Shown: positions 1 to 46,827, counted from the stretch's first letter. The stretch: DNA of 64,000 nt from an uncultured virus (IMG/VR IMGVR_UViG_3300024518_000036) (IMGVR_UViG_3300024518_000036); one strand, 5' to 3'. Numbers and translations are program-made. The notes: a model not told the origin generated them from the letters alone.

Positions 1-639
1 CGTAGGCGAGCACGTCGAAGTAAGAAGAACCCAGCTTTGTTGCCCCGACCGGGGGTGCACCTCCAGTGGAAGGGGGGAAGGTCCGGAAGGGCCCTTTGGG
101 AACCCGAAGGTCAAACCAGGCAGAAGCCATTCATTGCCTTCTTGCACCTGTACGAAGGAGATCGCCTGATCGGCGGTGCTTCTATCCGAGAACTCCCCCG
201 GGAGGGTGCCCGTGGAAGGCGCGCAGCTCGGATCAGTGGAGTTGTGGCAGAACATGGGTGGGGACCGCTGTTGTACGATAGCGCGGCTCTGCTTGCCGGG
301 AAGCAGGGGCTGCTCCTCGTAGCGCACTCAATCGAGGCCGTGAAGATGGGCAAAACCTACACGGTCGCGAGTACAAGCCCAGAAGCACAAGGGGTTTGGG
401 AGGGCTACCTACGACGCAGTGACGTGCAGATTGTAGAGCGGCCAGCGTATCTCCCTACTTCTTCTATCGATTGGGGTATCTACCTTTCCCCGCAATCTTT
501 CGAGAAAGCATGGGGTGTGGACGCGGATCAATGGCTCTCTCACAGGAAGCCTGTATGGGCCCAGGTGCCGCATAAGGAGTGGGATACCCTGTTCGACCAG
601 CTATACCAGGGAGAAGGAAGCGGTCGGAGCTACCTGTGA
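1..639 (+). CDS. 5'-truncated ORF ending in a GNAT-like acetyltransferase domain
   Basis: Frame open from base 1 (RRRARRSKKNP...); VVAEHGWGPLLYD and STSPEAQGVW resemble acetyl-CoA-binding motifs of phage GNATs. Confidence 0.5.
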   Translation, partial: RRRARRSKKNPALLPRPGVHLQWKGGRSGRALWEPEGQTRQKPFIAFLHLYEGDRLIGGASIRELPREGARGRRAARISGVVAEHGWGPLLYDSAALLAGKQGLLLVAHSIEAVKMGKTYTVASTSPEAQGVWEGYLRRSDVQIVERPAYLPTSSIDWGIYLSPQSFEKAWGVDADQWLSHRKPVWAQVPHKEWDTLFDQLYQGEGSGRSYL

Positions 640-656
640 CGCGCACGGCTGACTGC

Positions 657-696
657 TCGCCCAATCAACAAAGGAATCGCCCAATCAACAAAGGAA
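657..696. repeat. Perfect 20-bp tandem duplication TCGCCCAATCAACAAAGGAA x2
   Basis: Read directly; intergenic, just before the RBS of ORF 709. Confidence 0.95.
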
Positions 697-708
697 AGGA
701 GTAGCCCG

Positions 709-1805: not shown

Positions 1806-2372
1806 ATGGCCAAGCTGAAGCCGCTTCCTTATTCGACCAATGCCCTGGAGCCGACTCTGGGCGCTGAGTCCGTGGAGATTCACCACGGAACGCTTCAAGC
1901 CAAGTACGTGAAGAACTGGAACAAGGGGATCGCGGCACGGCCCCACAGCCGTAAGGACTATGAAAACCTGGCTTTCAACGGTGCCGGGATCATCTTGCAC
2001 GAGATGTACTGGGAGAACCTCATGCCCGTTGGGGAGTCGCCGCTCCCTTCTCCCCAGTTCCTTTCCTGCGTCCAGCGATGCTTCGGTTCACTCCAGACCC
2101 TCGTGGACCAGATGGCCGGCATCGGCACCGTTATCCAGGGCTCAGGCTGGATCGTCCTGGCCTGGATCCCCCGATTCGAGCGTATGGTGCTGCTACCGAT
2201 CCGCAATCACCAGAACGGGTGGATCCCCGGTGCTGTTCCCCTGCTCGTCATCGATGTCTGGGCACATTCGTATTACCTGGACTACCAAGCAGCACGGAAC
2301 CGCTACCTTCAGTTGCTCTGGCACAACGTGAACTGGGGCGTCGTGAGTTCACGCTATGCAGAGGCAGTATGA
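1806..2372 (+). CDS. Fe/Mn superoxide dismutase family protein (variant)
   Basis: LPYxxNALEP, HH...YV, LHEMYW, QGSGW, DVWAHSYYLDY motifs. Confidence 0.9.
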   Translation: MAKLKPLPYSTNALEPTLGAESVEIHHGTLQAKYVKNWNKGIAARPHSRKDYENLAFNGAGIILHEMYWENLMPVGESPLPSPQFLSCVQRCFGSLQTLVDQMAGIGTVIQGSGWIVLAWIPRFERMVLLPIRNHQNGWIPGAVPLLVIDVWAHSYYLDYQAARNRYLQLLWHNVNWGVVSSRYAEAV

Positions 2373-3138: not shown

Positions 3139-3714
3139 ATGGCTTACACCATCGACATTTCGGAAGCACCTGGCGGTACTTACACCAAAGTCAAGAAGCT
3201 GCTCGTCGAGCTGGCCGGGACCTGGGACTACGAGAAGCCGGTGTTTACTTTCACTGCGGAAGACGATGATGCTGCTTCCTTAGCCGAAGACCTCGAAGAT
3301 CTGGGGGTGTTCATGACTGCTCCAGAGGCTTCAGCGGCGCCCGAGCCCGCTCCGGCGCCGGAGCCGGAGCCGGAACCCGCTGCCCCAGAACCTCTCCCGG
3401 TGGCAGCACCCCCGGAGCCGGAGCCAGAGCCAGAGCCAACTCCTGTCCCTCCCCCGATGGAGTCTGCACCTGCGCTGGCTCCGGCTCCCCCTCCTCCCCC
3501 CGCTCCTGTAAACGTCGTCGGGGCCATGTTCACCGTGGTCTACCACGGCCGTTGTTTGGAGAAAGGAACTGTCGGGAAGCGGCCTGTCAGGCGCGTAGGT
3601 CGGAGTCGGGTGCCTCAGGAGACAACGCTGGAGCAGATCGCTGCTGGCTTCTCGAAGACCGTAACTGTGGAGGCGTACCGCAACGGTGAGAAGATCGCCA
3701 CATTCACGGGCTGA
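3139..3714 (+). CDS. Hypothetical protein, two small domains joined by a Pro/Glu/Ala linker
   Basis: GAGG RBS, ATG 3139; PEPEP low-complexity linker. Confidence 0.75.
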   Translation: MAYTIDISEAPGGTYTKVKKLLVELAGTWDYEKPVFTFTAEDDDAASLAEDLEDLGVFMTAPEASAAPEPAPAPEPEPEPAAPEPLPVAAPPEPEPEPEPTPVPPPMESAPALAPAPPPPPAPVNVVGAMFTVVYHGRCLEKGTVGKRPVRRVGRSRVPQETTLEQIAAGFSKTVTVEAYRNGEKIATFTG

Positions 3715-5705
3715 TGTCGTACGGGCGGCAGGCCAACGTCGTCCTGGTCTTCGATCCGACAGGGAGAGTCCTCTCCCTTCGCCGAGGCCCCACAGACCCG
3801 TGGAGGCCAGGCTACTGGAACTTTCCTGGTGGCCGCCGAGAGAAGAGTGACAAGAGTGCCCAAGAAGGCGCTGCCCGTGAGCTTCGTGAGGAGTCGGGAA
3901 TCTACATCGACCCTCGCCACCTCAACTGGGCCTTCTCGTTTCGGAAGTTCCCCGGGCTGGTCAACGTCTTCTGGGTGAAACTGCCTCACCGTCCGGAGGT
4001 GAGCCATCCTGACAGGGAACATGATGCTCACCAGTGGTCTTGGCTGTGGGAGATTCCTCAGCCTACAATCCCCAACATCCGGTACATTGCCGAGCAGGTG
4101 ACGGGGAAGACTTGGAACCTGGCGCCAGTTGGTAGCACTCCGTCTGACCTCGGCTCCCTTTACGGGACGACCAGAACAGGCGAAACTCTCTCTGGAGGTC
4201 GAAGCATGTCTGCCCGTTGGAACAAAAGCGACTACCTCGCCTACTGGCCGAAGTACCAGCCTTTCCCCTACGCCCTCAAGCGGGGAATGAGACCAGTGCC
4301 GAACGTCAACTCGGTGGATTGGCCACAGGCGCAGTTCGCCCCTATGTACCTGCCCCCTGGGAGCCCGTCTTTTCAGCCGTACTCTTATCGCAAGAACGAC
4401 GTGCCGCTGACGGCCCAAGAACTTCACTACACGGTCACCAACTACGGTCCTTACCGCCAATCTGGCGTCGGGCGCGGTGGAGATCTTGCCCGCTTGCCTC
4501 TCGGCTATGGAGCTGCTATGCGCAACCCCCGACGACTCTGCCCACCTTCCGCCCCAGGGGTCAACACCGTCCTTCCGTCTGGGGATCATGCTTCGAGTGG
4601 TCTCGGCAAAGCCAAGCTGCGCAAGATCGGGCGCCTCATTCGACGCCTCAAGGCCAAGAGTCCACGTACACGGAAGCAGAACCGCCGGCTCGCTCGGTTG
4701 ATGCTCATGTACCGGGCTCTTCGCGCAGAACTGGACACCTCAGTTCCGACCGACTTCGAGCAGAAGCACCGGCGCCGCAGGGCCAGGACCGCTGCTCGGG
4801 GTCACTTCCGCAAGGCAAGAGGGCGTCGGGCTCGTAGACGCACGGGAAACAAGGTGCAGAATCTGGTGACGCAGCAAGCGCTGGACGTGGAAGCCGCAGG
4901 CGTTGTTGCAGCACCTTCTCTGGCGCTTCCGATGACCGTCACCCAGTACGGTCTCCAGGCTCCTGCGGTCCAGCAGGGCTGGATCACTACCTCCACACCC
5001 ATCGCCTCTGGCATTCCTTCAACCACACCAGCTGTACCGCCCCCCTCCAGCATGGGTTTGCCCGCGAAGGGTTTCAACCTTGGGGATGGCTTTGCCTACG
5101 AGCTGGCTCCGCTTCAGGCCATGGCTCCGTACGGTGAATATGGCGATCTGGCGCTGGAGAATCCCTTCTGGGACACCTTCACGAGGAAAGGCCGGGCGAA
5201 AAGCCGGGCGAGAAGGGCGGCGAAGTCCTCGACCGCTACGCTGAAGAAGCAGCTCTTCGCTCTCTTGACCAAGAAGCCCCTTTTTGGGAAGAAGAGGATC
5301 ATCACAGCAGACGAGCTGTCGGGGAGCAGGCGCAGGAAGTTCGATTCCATCCTGTACCTGCTCGGCAGAAAGGGCTACCGCCTTCAGCGGCGTGCGGGCA
5401 GGCTGCCCAAGCTCGTAAAGCAGGAAAGAACACGAAAGGAGCGGGGTACGCGTACATGGGACCAGGCCACCTCTCACTGGGACCAGCCGTCAGGGGACAA
5501 GGGGGGTCCATTGGATCGGTCAGTGTCGACCGCCGACTATCTGTACGGTGACTCGGCTCTGGAGAATCCCTGCGGCTGTGACGGCAAGGCTCGCCGCAAC
5601 ATCGGCATCACCAGCGACGCAGGAATCGGTGCTGGCGCCCTGCTGACGATGGCAGTCTTTACCGGAGTGGCTCTCTACATGATCAACATCGACGGCACTC
5701 CCTAG
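3714..5705 (+). CDS. Nudix hydrolase domain fused to a basic, C-terminally membrane-anchored protein
   Basis: Nudix box GGRREKSDKSAQEGAARELREESGI; Arg/Lys-rich segments; GDLALENP/GDSALENP; C-terminal TM. Confidence 0.8.
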   Translation: MSYGRQANVVLVFDPTGRVLSLRRGPTDPWRPGYWNFPGGRREKSDKSAQEGAARELREESGIYIDPRHLNWAFSFRKFPGLVNVFWVKLPHRPEVSHPDREHDAHQWSWLWEIPQPTIPNIRYIAEQVTGKTWNLAPVGSTPSDLGSLYGTTRTGETLSGGRSMSARWNKSDYLAYWPKYQPFPYALKRGMRPVPNVNSVDWPQAQFAPMYLPPGSPSFQPYSYRKNDVPLTAQELHYTVTNYGPYRQSGVGRGGDLARLPLGYGAAMRNPRRLCPPSAPGVNTVLPSGDHASSGLGKAKLRKIGRLIRRLKAKSPRTRKQNRRLARLMLMYRALRAELDTSVPTDFEQKHRRRRARTAARGHFRKARGRRARRRTGNKVQNLVTQQALDVEAAGVVAAPSLALPMTVTQYGLQAPAVQQGWITTSTPIASGIPSTTPAVPPPSSMGLPAKGFNLGDGFAYELAPLQAMAPYGEYGDLALENPFWDTFTRKGRAKSRARRAAKSSTATLKKQLFALLTKKPLFGKKRIITADELSGSRRRKFDSILYLLGRKGYRLQRRAGRLPKLVKQERTRKERGTRTWDQATSHWDQPSGDKGGPLDRSVSTADYLYGDSALENPCGCDGKARRNIGITSDAGIGAGALLTMAVFTGVALYMINIDGTP

Positions 5706-5707
5706 AA

Positions 5708-5923
5708 GTGAGGATCAACCCGCGAGCCCAGAAGAACACGCTGCTTCTGCTTGGAGCAGCAGTCGCTGGGCCTGCGTTGATTGTCGCCGGGGCTGGCTAT
5801 CCAGGGACGTGGGCATCGAAGGGCTTCCTCGTGCTTACGGGCATCGGTCTGATGGGGACGACGTACTACTACTTCGACACCGACGTCCGGGCGCTCCTTT
5901 CTGCGCCCAAGCCGACTGCATGA
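5708..5923 (+). CDS. Small two-TM membrane protein
   Basis: Two hydrophobic segments; starts RINP. Confidence 0.7.
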   Translation: MRINPRAQKNTLLLLGAAVAGPALIVAGAGYPGTWASKGFLVLTGIGLMGTTYYYFDTDVRALLSAPKPTA

Positions 5924-5935: not shown

Positions 5936-6376
5936 GTGAGCTTCGGAGAATTGGTCAACCAGCGGTGGGCTGAAGCGCAGTATCGACTGGGCTTGCCTCC
6001 TGGTGCGCTCCGTCTCACGTGGGAAGTCAGCAACAGCCACCCACACTTCAAGAAGAAGCGCGGCTACGCCGTCTGCTACTTCAGGGGCGGCAACCACTGC
6101 CACCTGAAGTTCGCTCCGAAGATCCAGCAAGCCCCAACGCACCGGGCCGATGCCATCTTGCGCCATGAACTGGGGCATGCTCTCGACTTCCTGATACCAA
6201 AGCACTCGCTGGATCAATGGGCTGCAAAACAGGGGGTTCGCCTTCCTCATACGGACGAGAGAAGAGCAGATGCCCTTGCTCTGGCCGTGTGGAGAGAGCC
6301 TATTCGCTACGACCATCAGATGGTGCAGTCCACTCAGCACGGGCAGGATGTCCGACCCCTACGCTTGGGGCTGTGA
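5936..6376 (+). CDS. HExxH zincin-like metallopeptidase (paralog of 27624-28112)
   Basis: LRHELGH...ERRADALA. Confidence 0.7.
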   Translation: MSFGELVNQRWAEAQYRLGLPPGALRLTWEVSNSHPHFKKKRGYAVCYFRGGNHCHLKFAPKIQQAPTHRADAILRHELGHALDFLIPKHSLDQWAAKQGVRLPHTDERRADALALAVWREPIRYDHQMVQSTQHGQDVRPLRLGL

Positions 6377-6609
6377 TGGCGAAACGGAATCCCAACATCA
6401 TCGAGTACATTCTCCCCGCCGACAAGCCAAAGGCGGACGGGGACTTCATCGAGTTCTACACCCAGTTCAACCTCATGCTGACGCCTGTAGCCTTCGGAGT
6501 GAGCTACTACCGCAACCAGTCGCTCAAGTGGGCCTTCATCCACACGCTGCTGGCCGCTCCCTACGTTGCCTACGTCCTCGTTGATGTTCTTGCCAAGGAA
6601 GACTCATGA
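6376..6609 (+). CDS. Small membrane protein
   Basis: TGATG overlap start; MAKRNP; SYYRNQSLKWAFIH followed by a hydrophobic segment. Confidence 0.7.
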   Translation: MAKRNPNIIEYILPADKPKADGDFIEFYTQFNLMLTPVAFGVSYYRNQSLKWAFIHTLLAAPYVAYVLVDVLAKEDS

Positions 6610-7406
6610 GTGGCCGCTTCGACCAGCGCTTGGTGCAACAGGGTCTTCTTCCCTCGACGAGGGCGAAGTACAAGGAGATCATCGACTCGGCTGGCGACAC
6701 CCCTCTCCTTTCTTGGGTGCGGTCCAAGGTGCACGCCCGTACTCCAATTGGCACCATCTTGCCCATGCGGGCTGCGGTGAAGCACTACCTGATTGCGGAG
6801 ATGGGGTACACCGAGGATGAAATCAAGGGGCTCCTTCCGAAGGCGAAAGGGCGTCCGGCTGCTTTGCGTGATGCCCTTTCCCCAACGCAGCTCGCTCAGT
6901 ACCACGCTGCCGTGGAGCAGGTGGATAGGGAACCGGCGCACACGATCCTCACTTTGCTGCCAATGACGGGGCTCCGAATCAGCGAGATCTGCGGGCTGCG
7001 CCTGAACAACATCCGAAACTACGACGGCCGACCCATCTTGGTGTTTCACGGGAAAGGGGACAAGCCTCGCACCATTCCTCTCGGTCGGTCCGGTAAGAGG
7101 GCCCTCGATGGCTACCTGGAGCGGGAGAAGCCGACGGACTGGCTCTTTCTCACCTACAACTACACCGGGCCGATTGGGCCACCTGCAATCCGCAAGTACA
7201 CGAGGAAGATCGCCCAGGACTACCCCAGCCTGGCAGGTCTCTCCCCCCACGTCCTTCGTCACACATTCGCCACGATGGCGCTTCGGAACGGCATGGACCT
7301 CGCCCGGTTACAAATCATCCTCGGCCACAAGAGCATTGAGACCACTCGCCGCTACCTGCACCCCACCGTAGGCGATTTGCAGGACGCGATGGACAAGATG
7401 CCGTAG
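6606..7406 (+). CDS. Tyrosine recombinase (XerC/D-like integrase/resolvase)
   Basis: Full catalytic set: TGLRISE, GKGDKPR, HVLRH, LGHKSIETTRRY. Confidence 0.95.
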   Translation: MSGRFDQRLVQQGLLPSTRAKYKEIIDSAGDTPLLSWVRSKVHARTPIGTILPMRAAVKHYLIAEMGYTEDEIKGLLPKAKGRPAALRDALSPTQLAQYHAAVEQVDREPAHTILTLLPMTGLRISEICGLRLNNIRNYDGRPILVFHGKGDKPRTIPLGRSGKRALDGYLEREKPTDWLFLTYNYTGPIGPPAIRKYTRKIAQDYPSLAGLSPHVLRHTFATMALRNGMDLARLQIILGHKSIETTRRYLHPTVGDLQDAMDKMP

Positions 7407-7414: not shown

Positions 7415-8293
7415 ATGTCCTCTGTTACACACAACATCCGCTACTGGGGCGACTCCATCGAGGCGCTCGCAAATGACATCGGTGTGGAAGTCGCTGCTCT
7501 TCACGCCATCGCAGCCGTGGAAGTCGGGGCCATCCAGTCAGTTGATGATGGGCTTCCCACTATCCGGTTCGAGGTTCATGTCTGCCTGAAGCGAACGCGG
7601 AAGGATATGTCCGGCGTGATCAAGTTGGAGAACAGCCCGCCGTTAGATGCTTGGAACAAGGATGCGCAGTGGTACTACAGCCAGAGCCGATGGGTCCGTG
7701 TTCACAGCGGGGCGCAAAGGGATGAGTGGGCTGCCTTGGCAGCTGCCTCCAAGGTCGACGGGGCGGCCGCGTTGGAAAGCGCCAGCTATGGCGTCGGGCA
7801 GCTCATGGGCTTCCACTGGATGCTGATCGGGTGCGTGAGCCCCCAAGCAATGGTGGCAGAGGCTACAGAAGGAGTCCCGGCTCAGCTTGGCCAATGGGGA
7901 CGGTTTCTCACCAACGAGCAGGACGGCAAGCTGATCACCGCGATGAACAACCACGACTGGGAGGGGTTCACCCGCATCTACAACGGTTCTGGTCAAGTCG
8001 ACTACTACTCCAGTCGCATGGAGCAGATGTACAACGAAGCTGTTGAAGCACTCGAATCCGGGATGACAGAGGAAGACCACGATCAGGCAGACCTCAGCAC
8101 TTGGGAGGCCCGGCAGGAAGCTCTGGTCACTCTCGGCTACGACCCCGGTCCCGTCGATGGTGCCTTTGGGCCCAGCACCAAGTCTGCTCTCCAGGAGTTC
8201 CAGGCAGACCAGGGGCTCACAGCGGACGGGGTCTGGGGCCCGAAGACTGAGAAGGCCATGGACGAAGCTCTCGAAGCAGCTAGCAGCGCTTGA
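7415..8293 (+). CDS. Endolysin: N-acetylmuramidase (DUF3380-like) plus PG_binding_1 domain
   Basis: AIAAVE, IRFEVH, ALESASYGVGQLMGFHW, FTRIYNG; C-terminal LGYDPGPVDGAFGPST...FQ...GLTADGVWGPKT. Confidence 0.9.
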   Translation: MSSVTHNIRYWGDSIEALANDIGVEVAALHAIAAVEVGAIQSVDDGLPTIRFEVHVCLKRTRKDMSGVIKLENSPPLDAWNKDAQWYYSQSRWVRVHSGAQRDEWAALAAASKVDGAAALESASYGVGQLMGFHWMLIGCVSPQAMVAEATEGVPAQLGQWGRFLTNEQDGKLITAMNNHDWEGFTRIYNGSGQVDYYSSRMEQMYNEAVEALESGMTEEDHDQADLSTWEARQEALVTLGYDPGPVDGAFGPSTKSALQEFQADQGLTADGVWGPKTEKAMDEALEAASSA

Positions 8294-30978: not shown

Positions 30979-31045
30979 AGTTTCTCGCGCCAGCGGAAAG
31001 GAGGCAAGAAAGGAACTGAAGTCGGGGTGCTACGTTTTGTGCTAC
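30979..31045 (-). promoter_or_regulatory. Two tandem GTAGCAC boxes plus GAAACT -10-like element (capsid operon promoter)
   Basis: Boxes at 31023-31033 and 31039-31045; spacings 49 and 61 nt. Confidence 0.5.
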
Positions 31046-31106
31046 ACAACCTCGACTCTTTTCTGCTCGTCTGCTAGGAAAGGAGTTGAAAGGCGGCCGG
31101 TGACAC

Positions 31107-36113: not shown

Positions 36114-36358
36114 GTTGCACTCACAAACTTGACGGCCACTCCGGCCAGGAATCGAGCGCCCGCAGCTCGGGTGGGCTCATCGAGAAGAGACTCCCCGGCG
36201 ACCTGCGGGTCCCAGGATTCCATCTTCTCTTGAAGGAAAAAAGCTACGATCTCAGGACTTGCAGCTTCACCAGCCGCACGGAGGTCGGCGTAGTGATCCA
36301 TGCCCATCTTCAGGTAGATCCCGAGCTGTTTCACAAGAGGAAGAAACTTCGCGAACAC
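36110..36358 (-). CDS. Small hypothetical protein
   Basis: GGAGGT RBS plus GTG; coupled on both sides. Confidence 0.65.
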   Translation of the reverse strand: MFAKFLPLVKQLGIYLKMGMDHYADLRAAGEAASPEIVAFFLQEKMESWDPQVAGESLLDEPTRAAGARFLAGVAVKFVSAT

Positions 36359-36359
36359 G

Positions 36360-38003: not shown

Positions 38004-38369
38004 TTAGACGTTGTATCCGCACAACCAGGCAGCAGCGCCGTAAAGCCACTCAAAGTTGCGTATCGGAGTCCCGTTGTCGACCATGCGGAACGCTTCACGG
38101 CACAGTTGGTGCTCCGTGGTTCCCTTGGTTTCCCCAAAAGAGGATCCCGGATCCCGCATCAGTCGGCCCATCTGCGCTTCCTGCATCTTCCCTGTCGTCT
38201 CGGCCATTGCCTCCAACGCGATCAGGAGCTTCGGATCCCGCGCCACTGCTGCTCGGTAGCCGGTGTCTGCGAAGGTTTGACAGCGGCCGTCACGAGCCCT
38301 TACGGCCATTCCGTAGGCGTACTCGATCCTTCCTGGGGTCAAGGAGTCTTTGAAAAGGAGCTTCGACAC
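38004..38369 (-). CDS. Hypothetical protein
   Basis: GGAGG RBS plus GTG. Confidence 0.65.
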   Translation of the reverse strand: MSKLLFKDSLTPGRIEYAYGMAVRARDGRCQTFADTGYRAAVARDPKLLIALEAMAETTGKMQEAQMGRLMRDPGSSFGETKGTTEHQLCREAFRMVDNGTPIRNFEWLYGAAAWLCGYNV

Positions 38370-38411: not shown

Positions 38412-41400
38412 TTAGCGCTGCTTCTCAGCTCTCTCTTCCCCAATGCCCATGAGGTCCTCGGACCATTCGTCTTCCTCCTCCTCTTCCTCTTCCTCTTCCT
38501 CTTCCTCTTCCGGTTGCCTTCTCTTCCGAGTAACGATGCCGGGTTCTGCAGGAGGAATCTCCTCCTCTTCGTAGGTCTTCCACTCCGGGGCTCCATGCGC
38601 ACCGCTTCCGATCCCAAGATCCCTCTCAGCTTTGATGTACGCCTCCACTTCCCCAGACATACGAAGCTTTCCCTTCATTGGTTCCTGAAGGTTGGCCGTG
38701 ACGGTAGCCAAGTTGACAGCCTGGCCAGGTTCCCACGCTAGATAAAGACCGGCCTGACCCACACGAGCGACGTAGATGCTCGTTGCTCCCTTCCCTATCA
38801 TACGCCTCTGGGGCTTTTCTGCGACCCAGAACAGGGCCGACTGAATGGCCTTGCCCAACAACATCGTCATGTCCGCAGGAGACTTACCCACCATGTCACA
38901 GTCAATGTGATCTCCCCGGCGCCACGTCATGACTCGGGGGATAGGAGCGCCTTTCGGGGACATCAAGATGAGGGTGCTGTTGGGCCACCGATCCTCTCCA
39001 AGAACGCGAGGAATCTCTTCGAGACGAAGCGTGGTCAGTCGACGCTTCCTGTACCTCTTGCACACTGCCGAAGAGGGCTGCATGGTGTGCCGACCGCCCT
39101 TCCCGCGCCTCTTGACGGCCATCCGTTGTTCGGCCAGGATCGCGATGGCCTCTTCGAGTGACAGCTCCGCTTGTTTCATGATGAGGGAAAGGGCCTTGGC
39201 GTCCTGGAAGGGCAGCGCCTGCCTCAGAGCCATATCGGCGACTTCTCTCGCCGTGAGTCCCCTCGTTACCTCGGTTGGCGTCCCCTTACCGTCCGTTACG
39301 TAGGCAACCACCTCGTCGTCCCGTAGCTTGCTGAGCCGAGAAACGAGGTTGAAGCCGCCTGGACCCAGTGCTTGAGAGATCCGATCAGCAACGGCCCAGG
39401 TGTCCGGGCGTTCCTTGCCCTGAGGAGGGAACAACGTGTCCAGGCCGGTCTTGTCGATTTTCCAGCCCTCAGGGCTGCCTTCCGCTTTCCGCAGGGCGTC
39501 GAAGGCCCCCTGAGCGGCCCACCACTCTGGGTACTCCGTCTTCAACTCCTTTGGCGTCAGCCTGCTGTCGCGGCTTCCTGGCGAGAAGTCAGGCCACTTG
39601 CCCGTCCGGACGAGGCTTTCCACCCTATCCAGACCCTCCTCCCGAAGTGGATTGTCCCGAGGACCACGGCTGCGACGGCGTCGTCGGCCACGCCGTCCGT
39701 ACTTAGAGTTCGGCTTGGCCATGTCTTTCAGGTAGGGCTCTGCGAATTCCACGGTGTCGTCAGGCGTAACCTGCTGCGCTGCGAAGCTCTCCCGGAGGCC
39801 AGGCTCTACTCCTTCTTGTGTCATCGCTTCACGAAGCAGAGCGTCTTGTTCTAGCTGTTGGGGAAGGAGCCCAAGGTTCATCTCGTGCTTGTAGCGAACC
39901 CTGAGCTGGTCCTTCAGTTGTTGCAATGCAGGCTTGAGGCTCTTCAACCACCGGAGCCGTCCCCTTTTACCCGTAGGCGGCTCGGGCAGTTTGATGCCCA
40001 GCTCGGCCATGTAGACGTAGAGCTTGTTTTCCTTGGTGGTGTCCTCTTCGGGCACCGGTTTGAATTCCAGAGAGTACCCATCCTCTACGGCAGTCGCATC
40101 GACGAAGAAGAGCTTATTGCCCACCTCCGTCATGTAAGGAACCCCCTCCTCGATCTCCTGTATCAGGGCCAAGTCCTCGTCAATGTTGAGGACTGTGGAC
40201 TGCCCGGTACGAATCCGGTTCATCTCCTTCGCCCTGCGAGCGAAAAGGGCGTCGGCGCTGAGATAGGTTTCACGAGGGCGCGTCAGCGCCACCACTTCTC
40301 CTCGACGCCCGCCATCGTGGGGCAAACACTCGCCTGTTTTTCGACAGATCTGGGTCACGAAGGAAAGGAAATCGGCAAAGCTCCTTCCTTGCTTGGTCGC
40401 CCAAGTCCCTGTGGGAAGCCCAGCCCGTGTCGCTCGCCCCTGCCTGCCGCCATGCGCGGAGTAGGCCACTTGACCGGCCAATACTGCGGCTGGCGTTCGA
40501 CGGCTGCCGGAGAACCCAGAGATCTCCGTGTTCAGCGTGTGGTAGTAGGCATCCATCAGCTGCATTTCTGGTAAGCGGGGGTCTTCTCCTTCCTCGTCCT
40601 CTTCCTTGACACTCTTGAGAACGCGGTCAAATCGCTCCGTCTGAGAGACGGGCTGAAACGCCAGGATGTTGGGGAGCTGATGGGCTCTGCCCATTAGAGG
40701 CACGATGTACCCTTTAGAACGGAACCACTCTGTCTGGGTGAGGTACTCGCTGAGCTGTTTCACTGTGTGGGGAGAGCCCCCAGCAGCAAACACTCCGTCC
40801 GCCCTACCCACTTCCGTGTAGAGATCGCCCTCAATCCTTGCTTCATCAGGACAGTTCCCGACCCCCCGGGACGTCGGAATACGCAGGGAGAAGAGGAGGA
40901 TCCCCGACTTCTCGTTCATCGCCAGAGCCCTGGGGATTGCCCTTCCTGTCTTATCCAGCTTGTTGAGGTCTACCTGAAGCGTCCCGACGACTGAGAAAGG
41001 AGCTGGAAGGATCCTGGGCTTGGCTTCATCCTGGGGCCTCTCCAGACGCCGCCAGATCTGGCTCAAAGACTCCGTAGTGCTTTGATCCCCAGGATGCCTC
41101 GTCAGACCCGACTGGTCACAGATGGCCTTGAGCAGCGCGTTGGCCGGGTTGAACACCAGGTCCCCCTCCGGCAGGGGCTCGAAGCAATCGGTCGTCTCGC
41201 CTTTGGCGCATATCCTGTCCTCGAACGACAGGTCGTAGATGGTGAGCTTCTTCCGCCCCTTGATCCAAGCCCTTCCGTAGTCAGGCATGAAGGGTCCGAG
41301 GCTCTGGTGACCGTCTTCGTCCTCGTACATGACCCTCGCTTCGGCCAGCTGCAAAGCGCTCGTGTAGCTTGCGATACGCTGTCCGTTGGCGTTCGTGACG

Positions 41401-44400
41401 GGAAGGTTCTCGCGGCGAACGAACTCGTTCATGCCCTTGATGGCATCACCTCGACCCAACTCGGTCGTGAAATCCTCAAAGGACATCGGTCCCCAAGACC
41501 GGGCGTACATCGGGAATTTTTTGCGTCGCTTCTTGCCCGGGACGTCGACCATCAACCGGAAAGCTCCGACCTCCCCTCGCTTCAGTGTTCCTTTCCCCTT
41601 TCGCACGGTCATTGTCTTCTGGCCGTTGAGCACGAAGGGCTTGAGGTGATCCATGAAGTTCAGGGTGATGTTGCGCGTCTCTCGAAGCTCGCGGTTCTGC
41701 TCCGCCCAGATGCGGTACTCGCTGAGGATCTTCTCGATCTGGTCTCTTCTCAGGGCCACCTGGTAGAAGACTCCGTACTCGGGGAACCACGCGCTCTCCG
41801 GGTTTCTCCGCACGAAAGGAGCGGTCGGGTAGAACGGGCGGCGAACCATAGTGTTCTGCCGGGCTGCCCGCTGGCGGCGATACGGGTTGCTCTGCGCAGG
41901 CTGCTGCTGGGCAAGCTTGACACCCTGTTCGATGAAGTCTTGAACGGCTGTGAAGATCCCCTTCTGCGCCTTCCAGTCCCTGTTCCCTGCGACGTTGAGG
42001 ACCTCGATTTGGTTGTCCACAAGCCACTTCGCGAACTCGACCGTGCTCGCCCTGGTGATGTGCTGACCCCCCTGCTGGCCCCCCCGCCACTGATGGACAT
42101 AGACTGGGTAGCCCTTCTGTGCTCCAGCGCCGACTTGAGGTCCATGCAGGACAGAAAGTCTGGCCTTGTCCCACCTCTTCTCGCGGGGGCCTCCCAGAGC
42201 TGTCCTGAGCGTCAGGTTGCCTCCGGGGGAGGTGGGGTCGCCAAACCAGAGCGTTCCATCAGCGTCGCTCACGTTGACCTTCGTACGAGGTGCCCACTCC
42301 TTAGAGTGATGCTCCTTCAGTCCGCCAGAAGGGAGATTGGCCAGCTCGGGGATGGCCCCGTCCACCAAGGAGGATCCTCCGGGAACTTCGACGTAGGCCC
42401 TGAACCCTCGGGGCATGGTGCCACCAGTCCTCAGCCCCAGGCCCACGGCCGCAGCAAGACCACCCTGGTCCGCGCCGGACTGGCCACCGGAGATGATGGC
42501 CTTGAGCACGAGCTTCTTCGCCGGGCTTACAGCCGCCGTGGCAGAGGCAGGCGCCCTCTTTGTCACAGTCGTCGTTGTCGAAGCACCTGGCTCTGCCCCC
42601 AGGAAGGCCAGCCAGCCGGGGTCGGGTATCAGAGGGGCCAGCGGAGCTGCCAACGGAGGGGGAGGAGGTGGCGTGATGTCACGAAAGGAGCCGTCGAAGC
42701 TCAAAGCGTAGACGTAGGAACCCCCGCGCTTCCCCTTCAGACGCAAGTAGACGTCGGTGCCCCGGATCGACGGGCCCCGGATCGACGTGACCCCCAGCTC
42801 TCCGGACTTCAGCGAAGTCTCCCGTTCCCGTGCCGTTTCGGCCTTGTTCCCCGCCAAGAGGGCGTTGGCCTGGTCTTTATTGAAGGTGAGCTTCAGCCGC
42901 TTTGCTGTGGCGTCGAGCTTCCTCTTCTGCTCCTGGCGCCTCTTGATCCCCTCGGGCATCGCCTTGGAGGGCCTCAGTCGCTTGGCTGCCAGGAAGCCAG
43001 CATACGCCGCGTCCTTCGGGCTTCTGTCGGTTCCCCCCAGTGCCTCGTTTCTACGCTTCATCACGGCCACGTTGATGTCGTCGAGAACGCCGTAGATCGT
43101 GACTACGAGCCGCTCCACAGGAGACTCCGGCGAGAGACGCCCAGCAGGTAGCGGAACGGTGCGGGCCTTGGGAACGGTGCGCTCCCTGGTGTCGAAGAGG
43201 GTGTCATCTAGCGCCTGGGCCCCGCGCTCCCCTTCCTCCTTGTAGACCTCGCGCATCTCTTGGACGTTGTACCTCCGATGCTTCTCCACTTCGTGCGCAA
43301 AAGACTCGTATTTCAACGAGAGTGGGTCCTTCCCCTTCTTGTCAATGAGCCTCTGCATCTGAAGCAGCGTCGGGAGATTCTTCGTCGCTCGATGACGGGC
43401 ATAGACGACCATGTGCCTTTTACCAGGGACGTTGCGAATCTTGGGTGGATCCCCGTACCAGGAGGGACCCGACTCGGTCTCGGACGGCAGATAGAAGGTG
43501 AGAGGCAACCTCTTCGCTTGCCTCATGCCTTGACGAACTGCAGTGGTGCAAGGAGTGGGCGGACCTGTTGGATCACTCAGATCAGGACAGAACGCCCCCT
43601 TGAACTCAACGGGAAGGTTGCTAAGTCCCGGAAGCTCTCCTTCGGCTCTCTGGATGAGAGGAGAAAGGAGACGAGCTACAAGCTGTTCAGCCCTCCGGCT
43701 CACCTGCCGAAGTTCGCCAGCAGCAGCCTCGGCGCGGGCATATTCCCGTTTGACTACCCTGGCCGCAACCCTGTGCGAGGCCCGGTGGCCTGTTTTCTTG
43801 CTCTTCTCCGGGTCACCAAAGACGATGGAGTAAATCCATTCCCCTGGCTCCACCCCCACCAGAGTCAACCGGAAGAGCTTGCCCTGGCGGCTCAAGATCC
43901 AGCGGTGGTATTGGTCCTGGTGTGCCCACTCTTTCGAGTCGGACGTCGGGATCTTAGTCAGCCCAATCCTCTTTGCCGTCCTCTCGTCCTTGACACTGAA
44001 CACGCCATCCCCAGCTGCTGCCCGATCCAGCACCGAGCGCGGCACAGGGAAAACCCGGTTGGCCGGAACAGCAGACCCGAACCCGAGGAAGAAGAGCGGG
44101 CTCGCTTGGGGGGTTCCTGGCGGAAATCTCCATGTCTGGACGAAAGCCGCTTCTTGTACCATCGAAGCCAAGACTGTCGGGAATACGTTCATCGTCTGCC
44201 CGACTGCCGCGAACCGCTGGGCCGCCGCAAGCGTGGCGGTAATCTCCTGGTGGTCCTTGGCCGAGAGCGCTCCGCCCCGCAGAAGACGCAGGGTTGGGAG
44301 TGGATCCTCGTTCATCAAGCGGTCTACAGCCCGCGCCAGCCCCATCTGGAGGTGGGGGCTGGGACAATTGTACTGAGCCGACTGTCGAACGAGCGTGATC

Positions 44401-45821
44401 GGCTTACCCCCTTCGATACCAACGCCCAAAGCTACCATACCGCGCAAAATCTCCGTCAAGAACAGAGTCAGAGTGATCTTTCCCTCCTTCTCTACCGTGA
44501 AACGCCCTCGAACCTTTCCAGCCGCTTCGTTTTCAGCTGTGAAGACGTAGTGAGGGTCAGAGGCGTCCCGAACAAGGCGCCCGTCCGTAATGCCTATGGC
44601 ATCAGTGCCGAGGGTCAAACGGCCCCCGGTGATCTTTTCGCTCTTAGGACCCAGCGCAACGTCGATGCTCACCTTCCCAGAGCTGTAGTTGATCGTCGGA
44701 GAGCACATAGAGTTCGCAAAGAGCGTGGACCCTGTAAGCTCTTTCCCCTTCTCGTAGAAAGGAGCTGGCAGAGCGAAGGCCAGCACGCCTTGCCACGCTC
44801 GATTAGATAAGTCCCAGAGCTTGGCGGTGATTAAGGTACGAGCCAAGCCGTCATACAGGGCTGGCTCGTTCTTGCCTACACCAACCGGAGCGATGCGATA
44901 ACTCCCTTCGTGCTCAGATAGAGGGCCCGAAGCCATGAGGCCCAAGAAGGTCCGAGGAGGGGCGGGAGGCGGCACACCCGCCCTCTCAGCCTCAACCAGC
45001 ACCGACGGGGGGTAAGCCCGCACGTCACCGACAGAAACCACCGGGTAGTTTCTCATCTTTCCCGGCTGCTCTGCTCTCTTGACGATATCGGACAGCTTCA
45101 CGACTTGCTTCTGAAAGGCTTGTGCACTGAGGGTCGTGATCCCCAAGAGCCCCTGCCCGCCCAGAATCCCGAAGTCAGGGAAGGGATGGGCCTTCGTCCC
45201 TTGAAGCGCCTCCCACTCTTCCTGAAGCCCGAGAGGAAGGTAGTTCTCCGCCCTGCCCCGGTAGGGAACTCGAAGGTCGAAGCTGATCTTGTTCACTGCG
45301 CTCAAGACCTCCCGAGCGGACTGGAGATCCTCCGGAGCGCCTTCCCCGGACCACTTCGGCTCGATGAAGCCCAGAACACCGCTCTCGTCGTAGGCGAAGA
45401 TTTCCTCCACGAGATTTCCTAGGGCGTCTTCGTTGATCCGCCCATGCTCCACCACCTGAGAAGTGTCGACCCCGTACTCGCCCAGGTGAGAAAGGAGCTG
45501 CCTGACGGCATCGCGGTAGCGCGGGTAGCTAAGAGCGGTCCTGAACGCATGCGCTGCCATGAGGACAGCGGTGGGGTTGACAGGAAAGAGCACGACCTGT
45601 CGGCGAGACAGCTCACCGTGGCTGAAAAGCGCATCCCAAGGCCCATCAACTACGGGGCCTGACTCCTGAGGCAGGGAAGCAGTCGCAGGGTTGTAACGAG
45701 AGACCCGAGTAGATCGGTCCTTCCTGCGCTTGCGGCGTCGGCCCCGAGGTGCACGAGGGGGGTTGGCCTCTGCAATCAGAGCCTGCTTCCACTGCCAGTA
45801 GCCTCGACGACCTCGACCCAC
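38412..45821 (-). CDS. 2469-aa polyvalent-type protein with SLOG (MoCo-carrier/YpsA-like) and ASCH-like domains
   Basis: IISGGQSGADQGGL...RTKVNVSDADGTL...VLNVAGNR (about 41920-42520); LNF...VLNGQKTMTVR (about 41400-41680); poly-Glu tail. Confidence 0.85.
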   Translation of the reverse strand: MGRGRRGYWQWKQALIAEANPPRAPRGRRRKRRKDRSTRVSRYNPATASLPQESGPVVDGPWDALFSHGELSRRQVVLFPVNPTAVLMAAHAFRTALSYPRYRDAVRQLLSHLGEYGVDTSQVVEHGRINEDALGNLVEEIFAYDESGVLGFIEPKWSGEGAPEDLQSAREVLSAVNKISFDLRVPYRGRAENYLPLGLQEEWEALQGTKAHPFPDFGILGGQGLLGITTLSAQAFQKQVVKLSDIVKRAEQPGKMRNYPVVSVGDVRAYPPSVLVEAERAGVPPPAPPRTFLGLMASGPLSEHEGSYRIAPVGVGKNEPALYDGLARTLITAKLWDLSNRAWQGVLAFALPAPFYEKGKELTGSTLFANSMCSPTINYSSGKVSIDVALGPKSEKITGGRLTLGTDAIGITDGRLVRDASDPHYVFTAENEAAGKVRGRFTVEKEGKITLTLFLTEILRGMVALGVGIEGGKPITLVRQSAQYNCPSPHLQMGLARAVDRLMNEDPLPTLRLLRGGALSAKDHQEITATLAAAQRFAAVGQTMNVFPTVLASMVQEAAFVQTWRFPPGTPQASPLFFLGFGSAVPANRVFPVPRSVLDRAAAGDGVFSVKDERTAKRIGLTKIPTSDSKEWAHQDQYHRWILSRQGKLFRLTLVGVEPGEWIYSIVFGDPEKSKKTGHRASHRVAARVVKREYARAEAAAGELRQVSRRAEQLVARLLSPLIQRAEGELPGLSNLPVEFKGAFCPDLSDPTGPPTPCTTAVRQGMRQAKRLPLTFYLPSETESGPSWYGDPPKIRNVPGKRHMVVYARHRATKNLPTLLQMQRLIDKKGKDPLSLKYESFAHEVEKHRRYNVQEMREVYKEEGERGAQALDDTLFDTRERTVPKARTVPLPAGRLSPESPVERLVVTIYGVLDDINVAVMKRRNEALGGTDRSPKDAAYAGFLAAKRLRPSKAMPEGIKRRQEQKRKLDATAKRLKLTFNKDQANALLAGNKAETARERETSLKSGELGVTSIRGPSIRGTDVYLRLKGKRGGSYVYALSFDGSFRDITPPPPPPLAAPLAPLIPDPGWLAFLGAEPGASTTTTVTKRAPASATAAVSPAKKLVLKAIISGGQSGADQGGLAAAVGLGLRTGGTMPRGFRAYVEVPGGSSLVDGAIPELANLPSGGLKEHHSKEWAPRTKVNVSDADGTLWFGDPTSPGGNLTLRTALGGPREKRWDKARLSVLHGPQVGAGAQKGYPVYVHQWRGGQQGGQHITRASTVEFAKWLVDNQIEVLNVAGNRDWKAQKGIFTAVQDFIEQGVKLAQQQPAQSNPYRRQRAARQNTMVRRPFYPTAPFVRRNPESAWFPEYGVFYQVALRRDQIEKILSEYRIWAEQNRELRETRNITLNFMDHLKPFVLNGQKTMTVRKGKGTLKRGEVGAFRLMVDVPGKKRRKKFPMYARSWGPMSFEDFTTELGRGDAIKGMNEFVRRENLPVTNANGQRIASYTSALQLAEARVMYEDEDGHQSLGPFMPDYGRAWIKGRKKLTIYDLSFEDRICAKGETTDCFEPLPEGDLVFNPANALLKAICDQSGLTRHPGDQSTTESLSQIWRRLERPQDEAKPRILPAPFSVVGTLQVDLNKLDKTGRAIPRALAMNEKSGILLFSLRIPTSRGVGNCPDEARIEGDLYTEVGRADGVFAAGGSPHTVKQLSEYLTQTEWFRSKGYIVPLMGRAHQLPNILAFQPVSQTERFDRVLKSVKEEDEEGEDPRLPEMQLMDAYYHTLNTEISGFSGSRRTPAAVLAGQVAYSAHGGRQGRATRAGLPTGTWATKQGRSFADFLSFVTQICRKTGECLPHDGGRRGEVVALTRPRETYLSADALFARRAKEMNRIRTGQSTVLNIDEDLALIQEIEEGVPYMTEVGNKLFFVDATAVEDGYSLEFKPVPEEDTTKENKLYVYMAELGIKLPEPPTGKRGRLRWLKSLKPALQQLKDQLRVRYKHEMNLGLLPQQLEQDALLREAMTQEGVEPGLRESFAAQQVTPDDTVEFAEPYLKDMAKPNSKYGRRGRRRRRSRGPRDNPLREEGLDRVESLVRTGKWPDFSPGSRDSRLTPKELKTEYPEWWAAQGAFDALRKAEGSPEGWKIDKTGLDTLFPPQGKERPDTWAVADRISQALGPGGFNLVSRLSKLRDDEVVAYVTDGKGTPTEVTRGLTAREVADMALRQALPFQDAKALSLIMKQAELSLEEAIAILAEQRMAVKRRGKGGRHTMQPSSAVCKRYRKRRLTTLRLEEIPRVLGEDRWPNSTLILMSPKGAPIPRVMTWRRGDHIDCDMVGKSPADMTMLLGKAIQSALFWVAEKPQRRMIGKGATSIYVARVGQAGLYLAWEPGQAVNLATVTANLQEPMKGKLRMSGEVEAYIKAERDLGIGSGAHGAPEWKTYEEEEIPPAEPGIVTRKRRQPEEEEEEEEEEEEEDEWSEDLMGIGEERAEKQR

Positions 45822-45822
45822 G

Positions 45823-46827
45823 CTACTTGACCCGGAACGGTGAAGGAAGGTGGAAGGAGCTTGTCTTTTCTAGTGTTTGTGTCGCATTGCCCCACCGGCT
45901 CATGACACTTCCTTTGTCCTCCCAAAGCCCCTTGCCCCTTACCCAGTCCAGTAGAATCTGTGTGCCCACCGAAACAGCTACGCCTGTTGCAACGGCCCCC
46001 GTGATCTTCGTCCAGTTAAGTGCTTCATCAGCAGCTTCCGCCGCCACGCTCGCTCCGACAGCCGCGCTAACGCTGTTGTTTGCGCGAGCAAGCCCCCCAT
46101 ATGCTTGGGAATAAGCAGGGCTTCTCCTTTCCCTCCGGGGCAGCTTCGATCTCTTGTACCCAAGAGGTGCTGGCTTGAGCCGCACGACGCGAGCTGGCCC
46201 TTTGCGCCTTTTTGCCATCTCAGGGAGATAGCGTGCGTCGCCACTTATGACATCCCAGCCGAGGGGGACACCTTCGACGGTCGGCTCTGCGAAGTACCAC
46301 TTAGACGGGTGGAAGGGCCGATCCCCAACCATCGCGTAGATATGAGCCCATCTCGTGTTCTGGGGAATGGGGTCGCCTTGGATGTAACGAACCTTCTGCC
46401 CGGTCACCTTGTCACGACCGGAAAGGACCAGCTTCCAGGGCAATCCCACGCTCTCGAAAAGCGCCCCCAACACGAGCACCTGGTCATCGCAATCGCCAAA
46501 GCCAGCCTTAATCGTCCACAATGGATCGGCCAGCCGCTCTCCGGGCTCGTTGACGTAGTAGATGTTCTCCGGGTTTTGTACCCACTTCAAGATAGCTGCT
46601 GCCTGCTTCTTGTACTGACGAGGCCGAGCCGGAGATTTCTTCAGTATCTTCAGCGCGAGCGTTGCAATTCGAGGGTCCCTGCCCCTCATCACTGCAATCT
46701 GGCGGATGACGACCAGGCGTTCTGGGTGAGAAAGGGAGTGCCAGTCAGGCAGGTGGTAGACCTTCGCGGAGCCCAGATTCAGCTCTTTGGCGTTGGTCTT
46801 GAGCTTATGGACTGGCAGACGGGCCAC
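45823..46827 (-). CDS. Transglutaminase-like cysteine protease with C-terminal hydrophobic helix
   Basis: YVNEP...P..TIK.GFGDCDD (Cys), WAHIYAMV (His), WYFAEPT (acid); AGGAGGT RBS. Confidence 0.85.
   Translation of the reverse strand: MARLPVHKLKTNAKELNLGSAKVYHLPDWHSLSHPERLVVIRQIAVMRGRDPRIATLALKILKKSPARPRQYKKQAAAILKWVQNPENIYYVNEPGERLADPLWTIKAGFGDCDDQVLVLGALFESVGLPWKLVLSGRDKVTGQKVRYIQGDPIPQNTRWAHIYAMVGDRPFHPSKWYFAEPTVEGVPLGWDVISGDARYLPEMAKRRKGPARVVRLKPAPLGYKRSKLPRRERRSPAYSQAYGGLARANNSVSAAVGASVAAEAADEALNWTKITGAVATGVAVSVGTQILLDWVRGKGLWEDKGSVMSRWGNATQTLEKTSSFHLPSPFRVK

Follow-up and report, generated by a model that had tools for sequence, protein, structure and literature searches.

The stretch of DNA analysed here, referred to as the window, comprises 64 kb (64,000 nucleotides) from an uncultured virus (IMG/VR IMGVR_UViG_3300024518_000036), with a G+C content of 60% and dense coding. 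It contains a gene for a 2469-residue protein of the polyvalent type (P0001; 38412–45821, minus strand) and, adjoining it, one for a 334-residue protein with a transglutaminase fold (45823–46827, minus strand), along with a number of unrelated proteins that share with the giant one a pentapeptide, [A/S]-[R/K/Q]-x-N-P. This motif, which ends in Asn-Pro (NP), stands at the ends of arginine-rich leaders and spacers and is tentatively read below as a processing code. An identical 2469-residue protein was encountered on a contig 133,057 bases long; the window thus belongs to a contig no shorter than 133 kb, more than half of which lies beyond it. The gene set encompassed 64 open reading frames (ORFs) selected with a codon-usage log-odds score trained on long ORFs, a training set flawed by two antisense ORFs within the giant gene. 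A 77-residue ORF (6376–6609) outside this set was located separately, and the start codons of short ORFs are uncertain.

Scans against Pfam and other libraries matched few genes, most window genes being devoid of a Pfam, PHROG or NCBIfam match, and the NCBIfam scan yielded nothing beyond the annotation from the other libraries. The matches included a tyrosine integrase (6606–7406), a muramidase endolysin with a peptidoglycan-binding domain (7415–8293), an SNF2 helicase (9352–10959), an exonuclease of the RNase T type (26202–26741) and ParB (61357–62499). Integrase, endolysin, helicase and ParB provide the mobile-element context by which polyvalent proteins are recognised. Joint Genome Institute (JGI) metagenomes yielded five related loci, and a further match was one 3-kb contig of a deltaproteobacterial metagenome-assembled genome. 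Scans of IMG/VR with the transglutaminase-like protein and with the alignment of the giant protein and its homologues (alignment A1) confirmed no relative, and tblastn searches of GenBank phages with the transglutaminase-like protein and a syntenic 972-residue protein gave no match. The nearest ESM Atlas clusters of the latter protein are 95% viruses, most commonly Uroviricota, and the element is therefore called an uncultured phage-like one. This sole taxonomic hint points to tailed phages, contrary to the tailless-virus setting envisaged in an earlier note on this DNA.

The giant protein is laid out as a basic leader, a variable middle that contains a cpYpsA SLOG domain (residues 1109–1209; Pfam E 4.8e-18), a basic spacer, a C-terminal domain and a poly-Glu tail. 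Its homologues P0003–P0006 share 28–31% identity with it. A basic peptide bracketed by NP lies within the leader at residues 20–45 (AEANP-PRAPRGRRRKRRKDRSTRVSRY-NP; 45687–45764, minus strand) and belongs to the class of brackets whose excess over shuffled sequence is given below. A second bracketed stretch, a basic linker seen in alignment A1 (residues 1312–1341, AQSNP...FVRRNP; 41799–41888, minus strand), connects SLOG with the next conserved module. The junction module (residues 2035–2058, AKPN-SKYGRRGRRRRRSRGPRD-NP; 39648–39719, minus strand), identified by its invariance and by the fold boundary in the structure prediction, immediately precedes the conserved C-terminal domain (approximately residues 2059–2410; 38592–39647, minus strand), which is defined by its predicted structure and an invariant Arg, D-x-D and Trp. 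At the very end of the protein (38415–38560, minus strand), the acidic tail contains a run of 13 Glu, opposite in charge to the Arg-rich leader and spacers.

The 45 ORFs (14,108 residues) left of 46.9 kb contain 53 NP where 24.6 are expected (z 5.7; none of 300 shuffles reached 53), with all motif expectations in this work derived from residue shuffles within each protein, and NP ranks first by z among the 400 dipeptides (observed-to-expected ratio 2.18, z 5.8). In the same ORFs, [RK]xNP was found 16 times against 3.2, and the 19 ORFs right of 46.9 kb contained seven NP against 5.6. The earlier note had reported a recurrent NP motif in many ORFs and had proposed comparing the two sides of the window with each other and with shuffled controls; every example it listed is present, in frame and in a plausible ORF, and the enrichment is confirmed for the left side. 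The integrase and the exonuclease contain no NP and the SNF2 helicase two, neither of them with a basic patch, again as it had described. Its assertion that motifs with a basic patch are lacking at 47–64 kb agrees with the near-expected NP count there but not with RRQYNP in ORF 46901–47431, which is kept in both of its homologues (2/2), nor with AARRNP (55666–55677) in a 173-residue ORF (55351–55872, minus strand), the only full motif right of 47 kb. Counts of the DNA word AAYCC are 53 for the sense coding frame and 11–19 for every other frame, and DNA flanking the sites shows no conservation, so the signal resides at the protein level and a DNA-level motif as its cause was rejected.

The residues ahead of NP are themselves biased: among 52 scorable sites, Ala occupies position −3 in 19 and Arg position −2 in 13. 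Accordingly longer patterns (a dot standing for any residue) were found in the window at 14 versus 1.84 expected for R.NP, six versus 0.17 for AR.NP and nine versus 0.28 for [AV]R.NP (0/400 shuffles each), with AR.N at 16 versus 2.86, and the controls K.NP, R.DP, R.SP, R.QP, R.NA, R.NG and PN.R stayed at or below expectation. The real motif is thus longer than N-P, namely the pentapeptide [A/S]-[R/K/Q]-x-N-P. Restriction to ORFs of at least 150 residues minus their first 30 residues left NP at 43 versus 19.5, R.NP at 11 versus 1.58 and [AS][RKQ].NP at eight versus 0.55; the enrichment held in leave-one-out tests, and with the four largest carriers removed A..NP still amounted to seven versus 1.46 (0/300). 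As a baseline, 42 coding sequences of Escherichia coli K-12 (14,790 residues) gave 37 NP versus 27.6 (1.34-fold), two R.NP versus 1.42 and no AR.NP. Motif-like NP sites of the window lie in surroundings of more disorder-prone composition (0.73) than other NP sites and random positions (0.61–0.62). Other NP sites are structural and fall within conserved folded blocks, such as RVYCGNPIDG, TYNPVLFE and VQNPEN, the last in the transglutaminase-like protein. Ribosome-skipping peptides of the 2A type carry NPGP at the C-terminal end of their motif, and Gly-Pro follows NP in none of the 60 window sites.

Conservation was assessed by a HMMER search with residues 1990–2469 of P0001 against 1.84 billion representatives, which retrieved 118 proteins that share the C-terminal domain. 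The 117 of them other than the window's own protein (120,668 residues) contained 445 NP versus 215 expected, 128 R.NP versus 17.8, 55 AR.NP versus 1.64 and 122 A..NP versus 21.0, with the controls R.DP, R.SP, R.QP, PN.R, AR.DP and AR.SP at or below expectation; since these counts take in positions inherited from a common ancestor, they measure conservation and not independent origin. Including the window protein, R.NP occurs at 131 sites in the 118 proteins: 84 sites, spread over 70 proteins, belong to the homologous junction, and the other 47 are elsewhere, many of them N-terminal. A position matrix derived from the sites of other genomes alone produced 10 hits of at least 10 bits in the window versus 0.62 in shuffles. 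In alignment A1, R2055, N2057 and P2058 are invariant (5/5) and close an Arg-rich stretch ahead of the best-conserved part. The site after SLOG reads VRRNP, VRRNS or ARKNP, and homology with P0004, P0005 and P0006 begins directly after it. Another protein of the window (P0007, described below) belongs to a family with ARxNP after a 45-residue N-terminal module, in which A50, N53 and P54 are invariant in 4/4 sequences (three homologues, 41–82% identity). To judge from these alignments and counts, the motif is specific and has been kept by purifying selection across the whole lineage.

At the junction before the C-terminal domain, an alignment of 43 sequences (A4; 14% mean column identity) has Asn in 42/43 and Pro in 43/43, which places both among the nine best-kept of 480 columns. 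The flanking positions are looser, with Ala at −3 in 21 sequences, Arg at −2 in 26 (Lys in six) and Leu at +1 in 30. An AlphaFold (AF2) model of residues 1990–2469, computed with the 43-row alignment (mean predicted local distance difference test score, pLDDT, 83.7; predicted template-modelling score 0.77), has pLDDT values of 49–60 across the basic stretch and of 95 from about residue 70 of the query; NP is at query residues 68–69 and the first helix of the domain begins at 72. Over approximately 340 residues of the C-terminal domain, the pLDDT exceeds 90, and query residues R307, D318, D320 and W343 are invariant, with H316 in 42/43. No clear match to this fold was found with Foldseek in the PDB (best E 0.29), in the VIA wide search (best Z 4.1) or in BFVD (best E 0.25), a negative with which the folds of known Asn-Pro autoproteolytic domains (RsgI, mu1/VP5, FlhB) are still compatible. 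The junction NP is thus at the edge of a confidently predicted fold, and the other seams lie in disorder-prone basic stretches.

What recurs is a unit in which NP flanks an Arg-rich stretch on both sides. Segments of 4–35 residues with a net charge of at least +4 between two NP number 57 in the 117 representatives, versus 0.84 expected (maximum five in 200 shuffles), typical examples being LAQL-NP-RRRGRR-NP-LPEK and IAKL-NP-VRRARKARRARRSRRAER-NP-LTDG. At the upstream seam, position −3 is likewise Ala or Ser and position −2 Gln, Lys or Arg. The sequence continues from there into poly-Arg (LAQLNP, IAKLNP) rather than a helix, which rules out helix capping as the explanation for this seam. In some members (SRL-NP-LRES), the basic spacer is gone and one NP is retained. 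A basic N-terminal leader closed by NP no later than residue 45 was found in 28 of 101 members that start with Met, versus 1.25 expected, and family leaders such as MARKRRNP and MANARRNP resemble the window's MGKARRNP. The window itself holds four brackets versus 0.14 expected, at residues 53–74 of P0007, at 20–45 and 1312–1341 of P0001, and one that uses a doubtful LISNP; its short leaders include MGKARRNP, MAKRNP and, at an open 5′ end, RRRARRSKKNP. The net charge around R.NP sites changes from +3.0 upstream to −0.5 downstream.

The placement of the motif at N-termini and at boundaries between linkers and domains, as put forward in the earlier note, agrees with the step from disorder to fold modelled at the junction and with Pfam domains in relatives. 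In P0003, NP at 19 and 196 stands 5–6 residues ahead of cpYpsA (26–171) and DUF7831 (202–321), and P0004 has ARSNP 30 residues past its Macro domain. The ASCH-like and GNAT-like labels given there to two regions were not upheld, since no Pfam match was obtained for them even at E ≤5. Pfam recognised cpYpsA SLOG alone in P0001, cpYpsA plus DUF7831 in P0003, Macro in P0004, and NADAR, DUF7831, DUF4326 and cpYpsA in P0240; 13 of the 20 proteins scanned (P0001 and 19 homologues) had no Pfam domain, and no peptidase family was found inside any of the 20 at E ≤1e-4. By these domain assignments, the cargo of the relatives (SLOG, Macro, NADAR, DUF4326 and DUF7831) is related to ADP-ribose and nicotinamide adenine dinucleotide (NAD). 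The pentapeptide [A/S]-[R/K/Q]-x-N-P is best explained as a lineage-wide short linear signal, set at the ends of the arginine-rich leaders and spacers in a number of proteins of this element.

The gene next to that of the giant protein encodes a product matching PF01841 (Transglut_core) over residues 73–178 (27.0 bits versus a cut-off of 23, E 5.6e-6). Its putative catalytic residues Cys113 (in GDCDD; 46489–46491), His162 (46342–46344) and Glu181 (46285–46287), all on the minus strand, are invariant in 46 aligned sequences. Homologues number 460, the best 120 of which all show at least 47% identity and mostly carry PF01841, and by this measure the gene is among the best conserved of the lineage. 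An AF2 model (mean pLDDT 80.8) has a transglutaminase core followed by helices, including a hydrophobic one at 272–297. The closest Foldseek matches were TglA from Streptococcus pyogenes (9crn; E 2.5e-4) and the putative Cys proteases 3isr and 3kd4 (E 3–9e-4), at a probability of 1.0, followed by transglutaminases TG2 and TG3, factor XIII, arylamine N-acetyltransferases, the phage pseudomurein endo-isopeptidases PeiP and PeiW, TgpA and LapG. Identity to solved members is 10–18% and template-modelling scores are 0.21–0.30, low because the core alone aligns; a phmmer search of the PDB yielded nothing at E ≤1. Given this model and these matches, the transglutaminase fold is certain, and the fold does not discriminate the reaction, as proteases, isopeptidases, transglutaminases and acetyltransferases are all among the matches. 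The designation of 45823–46827 as a transglutaminase-fold protease is thus substantiated as to PF01841, the invariant Cys-His-Glu and the gene order, and not as to proteolysis, the fold being shared by non-proteases.

The gene stands directly upstream of that for the giant protein in the window and in loci L001 (59% identity), L002 and L004, i.e. in 4/4 loci in which that side is visible, L004 showing a C-terminal fragment at the contig end. In addition, the longest contigs of the transglutaminase-like homologues P0028 and P0059 are equal in bases to those of the polyproteins P0004 and P0006. The L002 gene (L002:7695–9629) contains an in-frame insert of approximately 320 codons (L002:8040–9020, plus strand) exactly before the catalytic Cys, which starts with Cys, ends with Asn and matches Hint with E 2.9e-5 (24.2 bits, below the 29.7 cut-off). 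It is probably an intein in the active site of the enzyme, as judged from these features. Inteins typically occupy essential active sites, so an insert at this position points to an essential catalytic residue. A complex prediction for the transglutaminase-like core with the junction and C-terminal domain, run on the window's two proteins alone and with no alignments, scored 0.00 and was uninformative either way.

One pentapeptide recurs at both ends of brackets, at the ends of leaders and at a boundary between disorder and fold, with its last two residues near-invariant outside the fold. On this basis, we take it to be a processing code, probably read by the transglutaminase-fold Cys protease, an account that we favour tentatively and hold to be a little short of probable. 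Proteolysis at both NP seams of a bracket would excise a small Arg-rich peptide, and would release the modules on either side or remove a basic leader from the N-terminus; the most likely enzyme is the Cys-His-Glu protein, whose gene immediately precedes that of the giant protein. Charge neutralisation or condensation of DNA is a conceivable function of the peptides so excised. Cleavage of the seams, its position and its timing (within the particle or once delivered), packaging of the substrates and the identity of the enzyme are all points that we infer.

Comparable maturation codes are read in T4 by gp21 (L/I-x-E, with capsid-targeting leaders), in phiKZ and SPN3US by prohead proteases, and in adenovirus by a protease acting on basic core precursors. 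The capsid-targeting leader of T4 internal proteins is removed, and the basic mu peptide is released from an adenovirus precursor. The present case resembles these systems in that one short motif would serve many unrelated packaged proteins and N-terminal leaders would be removed, and it resembles adenovirus in that a small, highly basic peptide would be excised by cuts on both sides. It differs in that the motif ends in Asn-Pro, matching none of these consensuses (T4, phiKZ-like or adenovirus), in the fold of the enzyme, and in being known from sequence alone. Several transglutaminase-fold cysteine peptidases, a group that includes LapG/BTLCP, lasso-peptide leader peptidases and PeiW/PeiP, are true endopeptidases with short recognition motifs; the 45823–46827 family has the same fold and a Cys-His-acid triad, and differs from them in its 10–18% identity, its C-terminal hydrophobic helix and its phage context. 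In polyvalent proteins of phages and conjugative elements, delivery together with DNA and processing into units by a peptidase have been predicted (Iyer, Burroughs, Anand, de Souza and Aravind, 2017; PMC5512222). The processor predicted there is a zincin (MPTase) domain carried within the protein; transglutaminase, SLOG and papain are words absent from the main text of that paper. P0001 and its relatives are likewise giant mobile-element proteins, and relatives carry enzyme domains of the conflict type (SLOG, Macro, NADAR, DUF4326 and DUF7831), from one recognised domain in P0001 to four in P0240; unlike polyvalent proteins as described there, they have no embedded peptidase that we could find, the candidate enzyme is a separate transglutaminase-fold gene, and a defined seam motif brackets the Arg-rich spacers. 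By analogy, one may picture a bacterial virus lineage with core maturation of the adenovirus kind, in which an Asn-Pro-specific transglutaminase-fold protease would read one code proteome-wide, excise Arg-rich DNA-condensing peptides by cuts at both NP ends, strip basic targeting leaders and free ADP-ribose- and NAD-processing counter-defence enzymes from giant carrier proteins for delivery to the host; we regard this full scenario as doubtful. In a bolder variant still, the enzyme would modify the side chain of Asn (transamidation or deamidation) and leave the backbone intact.

Several observations weigh against processing by this enzyme, a reading that is built on the statistics of sequences and their conservation. 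Xaa-Pro bonds resist most proteases, which leaves the scissile bond unclear. The 23 kb of L001 contain one A..NP versus 0.98 expected and the junction reads ARRNT there, though the transglutaminase-like gene is present; these 23 kb do not extend to the homologues of the window's richest motif carriers. In P0240, NP is missing from the Ala/Pro/Ser linkers that connect NADAR, DUF7831, DUF4326 and SLOG, and the tag is found at the N-terminal leader only (ARATWRNP), so the motif is no universal domain separator and instead accompanies Arg-rich leaders and spacers. A self-processing site in the tail of the enzyme itself is not consistent, NP occurring after residue 200 in 20 of the 120 homologues. 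Library scans of the 64-kb window recognised no gene for a capsid, portal, terminase or prohead protease, and 'virion' is therefore an assumption throughout. The window also encodes a second candidate peptidase, a 146-residue SprT-like zincin (5936–6376, plus strand; HELGH at 6164–6178) with a weak Pfam match (E 4.8e-4). Further, with PeiP/PeiW and true transglutaminases among the fold matches and peptidoglycan-binding proteins encoded in the module, a role of the transglutaminase-like protein at the cell wall or in cross-linking is possible.

Some of these points feed an alternative in which the seams are cut by another enzyme, be it the zincin, a prohead protease encoded beyond the window or a host protease, and the transglutaminase-like protein is, for example, a cell-wall endopeptidase of the virion or anchored in the membrane, or a cross-linker. 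The prediction of zincin-type peptidases as processors of polyvalent proteins (PMC5512222) argues for it, as do the portion of the contig outside the window, the C-terminal hydrophobic helix with the PeiP/PeiW matches and nearby peptidoglycan-binding genes, and the retention of the transglutaminase-like gene in L001 with few motifs in the part seen. The zincin, however, falls below the Pfam cut-off and had no homologue in the related loci, whereas the pair formed by the transglutaminase and polyprotein genes is kept in all four loci; we deem this alternative distinctly unlikely. It is also conceivable that the seams are left uncut, with Arg-rich arms that bind nucleic acid or travel with the DNA as counter-ions, and NP serving as a structural stop (for example a helix N-cap plus an N1 proline) or a docking tag for partner-dependent loading. 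This would suit the junction, where NP is three residues ahead of the first helix and acidic residues at +3 to +5 resemble a capping box, as well as the charge step across R.NP sites, the mild excess of NP in the ordinary proteins of E. coli and the plainly structural sites RVYCGNPIDG and TYNPVLFE. Any of Ser, Thr, Asp and Asn is normally accepted in a helix cap, and yet Asn and Pro are all but fixed at the junction; moreover, the upstream seam of each bracket leads into poly-Arg, the preferred A/S at −3 and R/K/Q at −2 are in the disordered part and have no capping role, and the very short leaders MAKRNP and MGKARRNP bear the tag with no arm to delimit. We consider uncut seams unlikely, though a serious contender.

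An enzyme-free timed release would result if the Asn-Pro bonds broke by themselves through asparagine cyclisation, catalysed by the domain at the junction and slow and spontaneous in the linkers. FlhB-type autocleavage takes place at NPTH. Autoproteolysis at Asn-Pro is described for the periplasmic domain of RsgI, reovirus mu1 and aquareovirus VP5 (PMC10328401), with the same conserved dipeptide as here. At the junction, NP abuts a confident fold with the conserved residues H316, D318, D320 and R307, and self-cleavage would account for the invariant Pro, which most proteases disfavour at P1′. Nevertheless, the cases given in that source have NP once per protein and inside a folded turn, whereas there are many sites per proteome here, mostly in disordered Arg-rich linkers, and the preference for A/S and R/K/Q suggests recognition by a partner; we therefore think self-cleavage improbable. 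As for chance, amino-acid composition or an artefact of ORF calling, the pattern was chosen from the data on which it was first tested, some starts of short ORFs are uncertain and LISNP is probably untranslated. Even so, the enrichment is specific to the coding frame and survives removal of short ORFs and of the N-terminal 30 residues as well as leave-one-out; it recurs in 117 proteins of other contigs, and the sites are near-invariant in alignments. The family repeat, the bracket statistic, the robustness tests and the junction refute this explanation, and its probability is negligible.

Were the seams cut, three things would be new: a protease specificity centred on Asn-Pro, a dipeptide that most proteases avoid; the class of enzyme that matures phage proteins; and, as the first of its kind to be defined, a cleavage code for polyvalent proteins, for which processing is so far a prediction. 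Searches of the literature, in a library from which most subscription journals are missing, turned up no account of this motif or of a transglutaminase-like maturation protease in phages. What is new here is the motif and the candidate enzyme class; polyprotein processing in the polyvalent-protein setting was already known, as a prediction. The motif offers a simple sequence rule for finding the set of processed or delivered proteins of a large uncultured phage lineage that otherwise resists annotation and for delimiting cargo modules in giant proteins, and a compact, portable seam together with a protease that recognises it would make a useful tool in the expression of polyproteins. Should the seams prove uncut, a pentapeptide that is near-invariant in disordered linkers of proteins with approximately 30% identity still represents an unexplained constraint.

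Among the other carriers in the window, P0007 (1762 residues; 18514–23802, minus strand) has 10 NP versus 2.5 expected, and its alignment with homologues delineates the 45-residue module followed by ARANP-NP-YGRRPRRRRRGRRARW-NP (23581–23646). That module (23668–23802, minus strand) is nearly invariant and has no Pfam match, and the C-terminus (18514–18600, minus strand) is a conserved poly-basic tail, KKNxRR..RR. P0008 (888 residues; 12429–15095, plus strand), with seven NP versus 1.8 expected, contains SPARNNP (13917–13928), IPARENP (14298–14309), AAANP, AYENP and NRRNP (14949–14960). Short leaders open a 95-residue ORF (12131–12418, plus strand; M-G-K-A-R-R-N-P), the separately located 77-residue ORF (plus strand; M-A-K-R-N-P) and a 71-residue ORF (5708–5923, plus strand; (M)RINP), and the ORF open at its 5′ end (1–639, plus strand) has RRRARRSKKNP at nucleotides 1–33, ahead of an unassigned domain, the one once labelled GNAT-like. 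A 177-residue ORF (25597–26130, minus strand) has the N-terminal segment AIPVRANP-SHSALQ-NP, a 663-residue protein headed by a Pfam NUDIX domain (3714–5705, plus strand) has AMRNP and two ALENP, and a 150-residue ORF (35007–35459, minus strand) has AARANP (35289–35300).

The 689-residue ORF at 28980–31049 (minus strand) carries AQANP, GRSNP and ALMNP. LISNP, which the earlier note had counted among its motifs, is indeed in the sequence at codon 56 and is probably untranslated, part of a 5′ untranslated region, because it lies 5′ of a likely ribosome-binding site and start (AGGAAG-N6-ATG, with ATG at codon 62), at which the L001 homologue also begins. Upstream of this ATG, approximately 30 nucleotides within 30860–30930 (minus strand; LSGAILISNPR) are identical at the protein level to L001:20937–20990, in proteins that are otherwise 33% identical; the stretch may belong to a 5′ leader or a regulatory element that has been conserved, or may be translated after all as a conserved N-terminus.

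The 972-residue protein (48023–50941, minus strand) is kept in L001 and L002 and combines a Gly-rich stretch with a very long Arg/Glu-rich middle that resembles a coiled coil, without assignment to a family. The family alignments of this protein and of a 416-residue one (36360–37610, minus strand), for which the ESM Atlas returned no usable hit, both resemble long charged coiled coils. The 416-residue and transglutaminase-like proteins each have a C-terminal hydrophobic helix that is kept in relatives, which hints at membrane association. The best-conserved genes of the module, at 31107–31352 (plus strand; 77% identity to the related loci), 38004–38369 (minus strand; 67–69%), 32659–33333 (minus strand; 55–64%) and 36110–36400 (minus strand; 53–63%), encode small proteins without a family match, the 81-residue one being on the strand opposite to its neighbours. 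A complete gene for an Fe/Mn superoxide dismutase (1806–2372, plus strand) is present within this phage-like element. Finally, a 750-residue protein (56764–59016, minus strand) has four Cys-rich metal-binding motifs of the MopE type and FG-GAP repeats; its three NP sites belong to the repeat TDCDDGD..VNP, and it may be an adhesin or receptor-binding protein.

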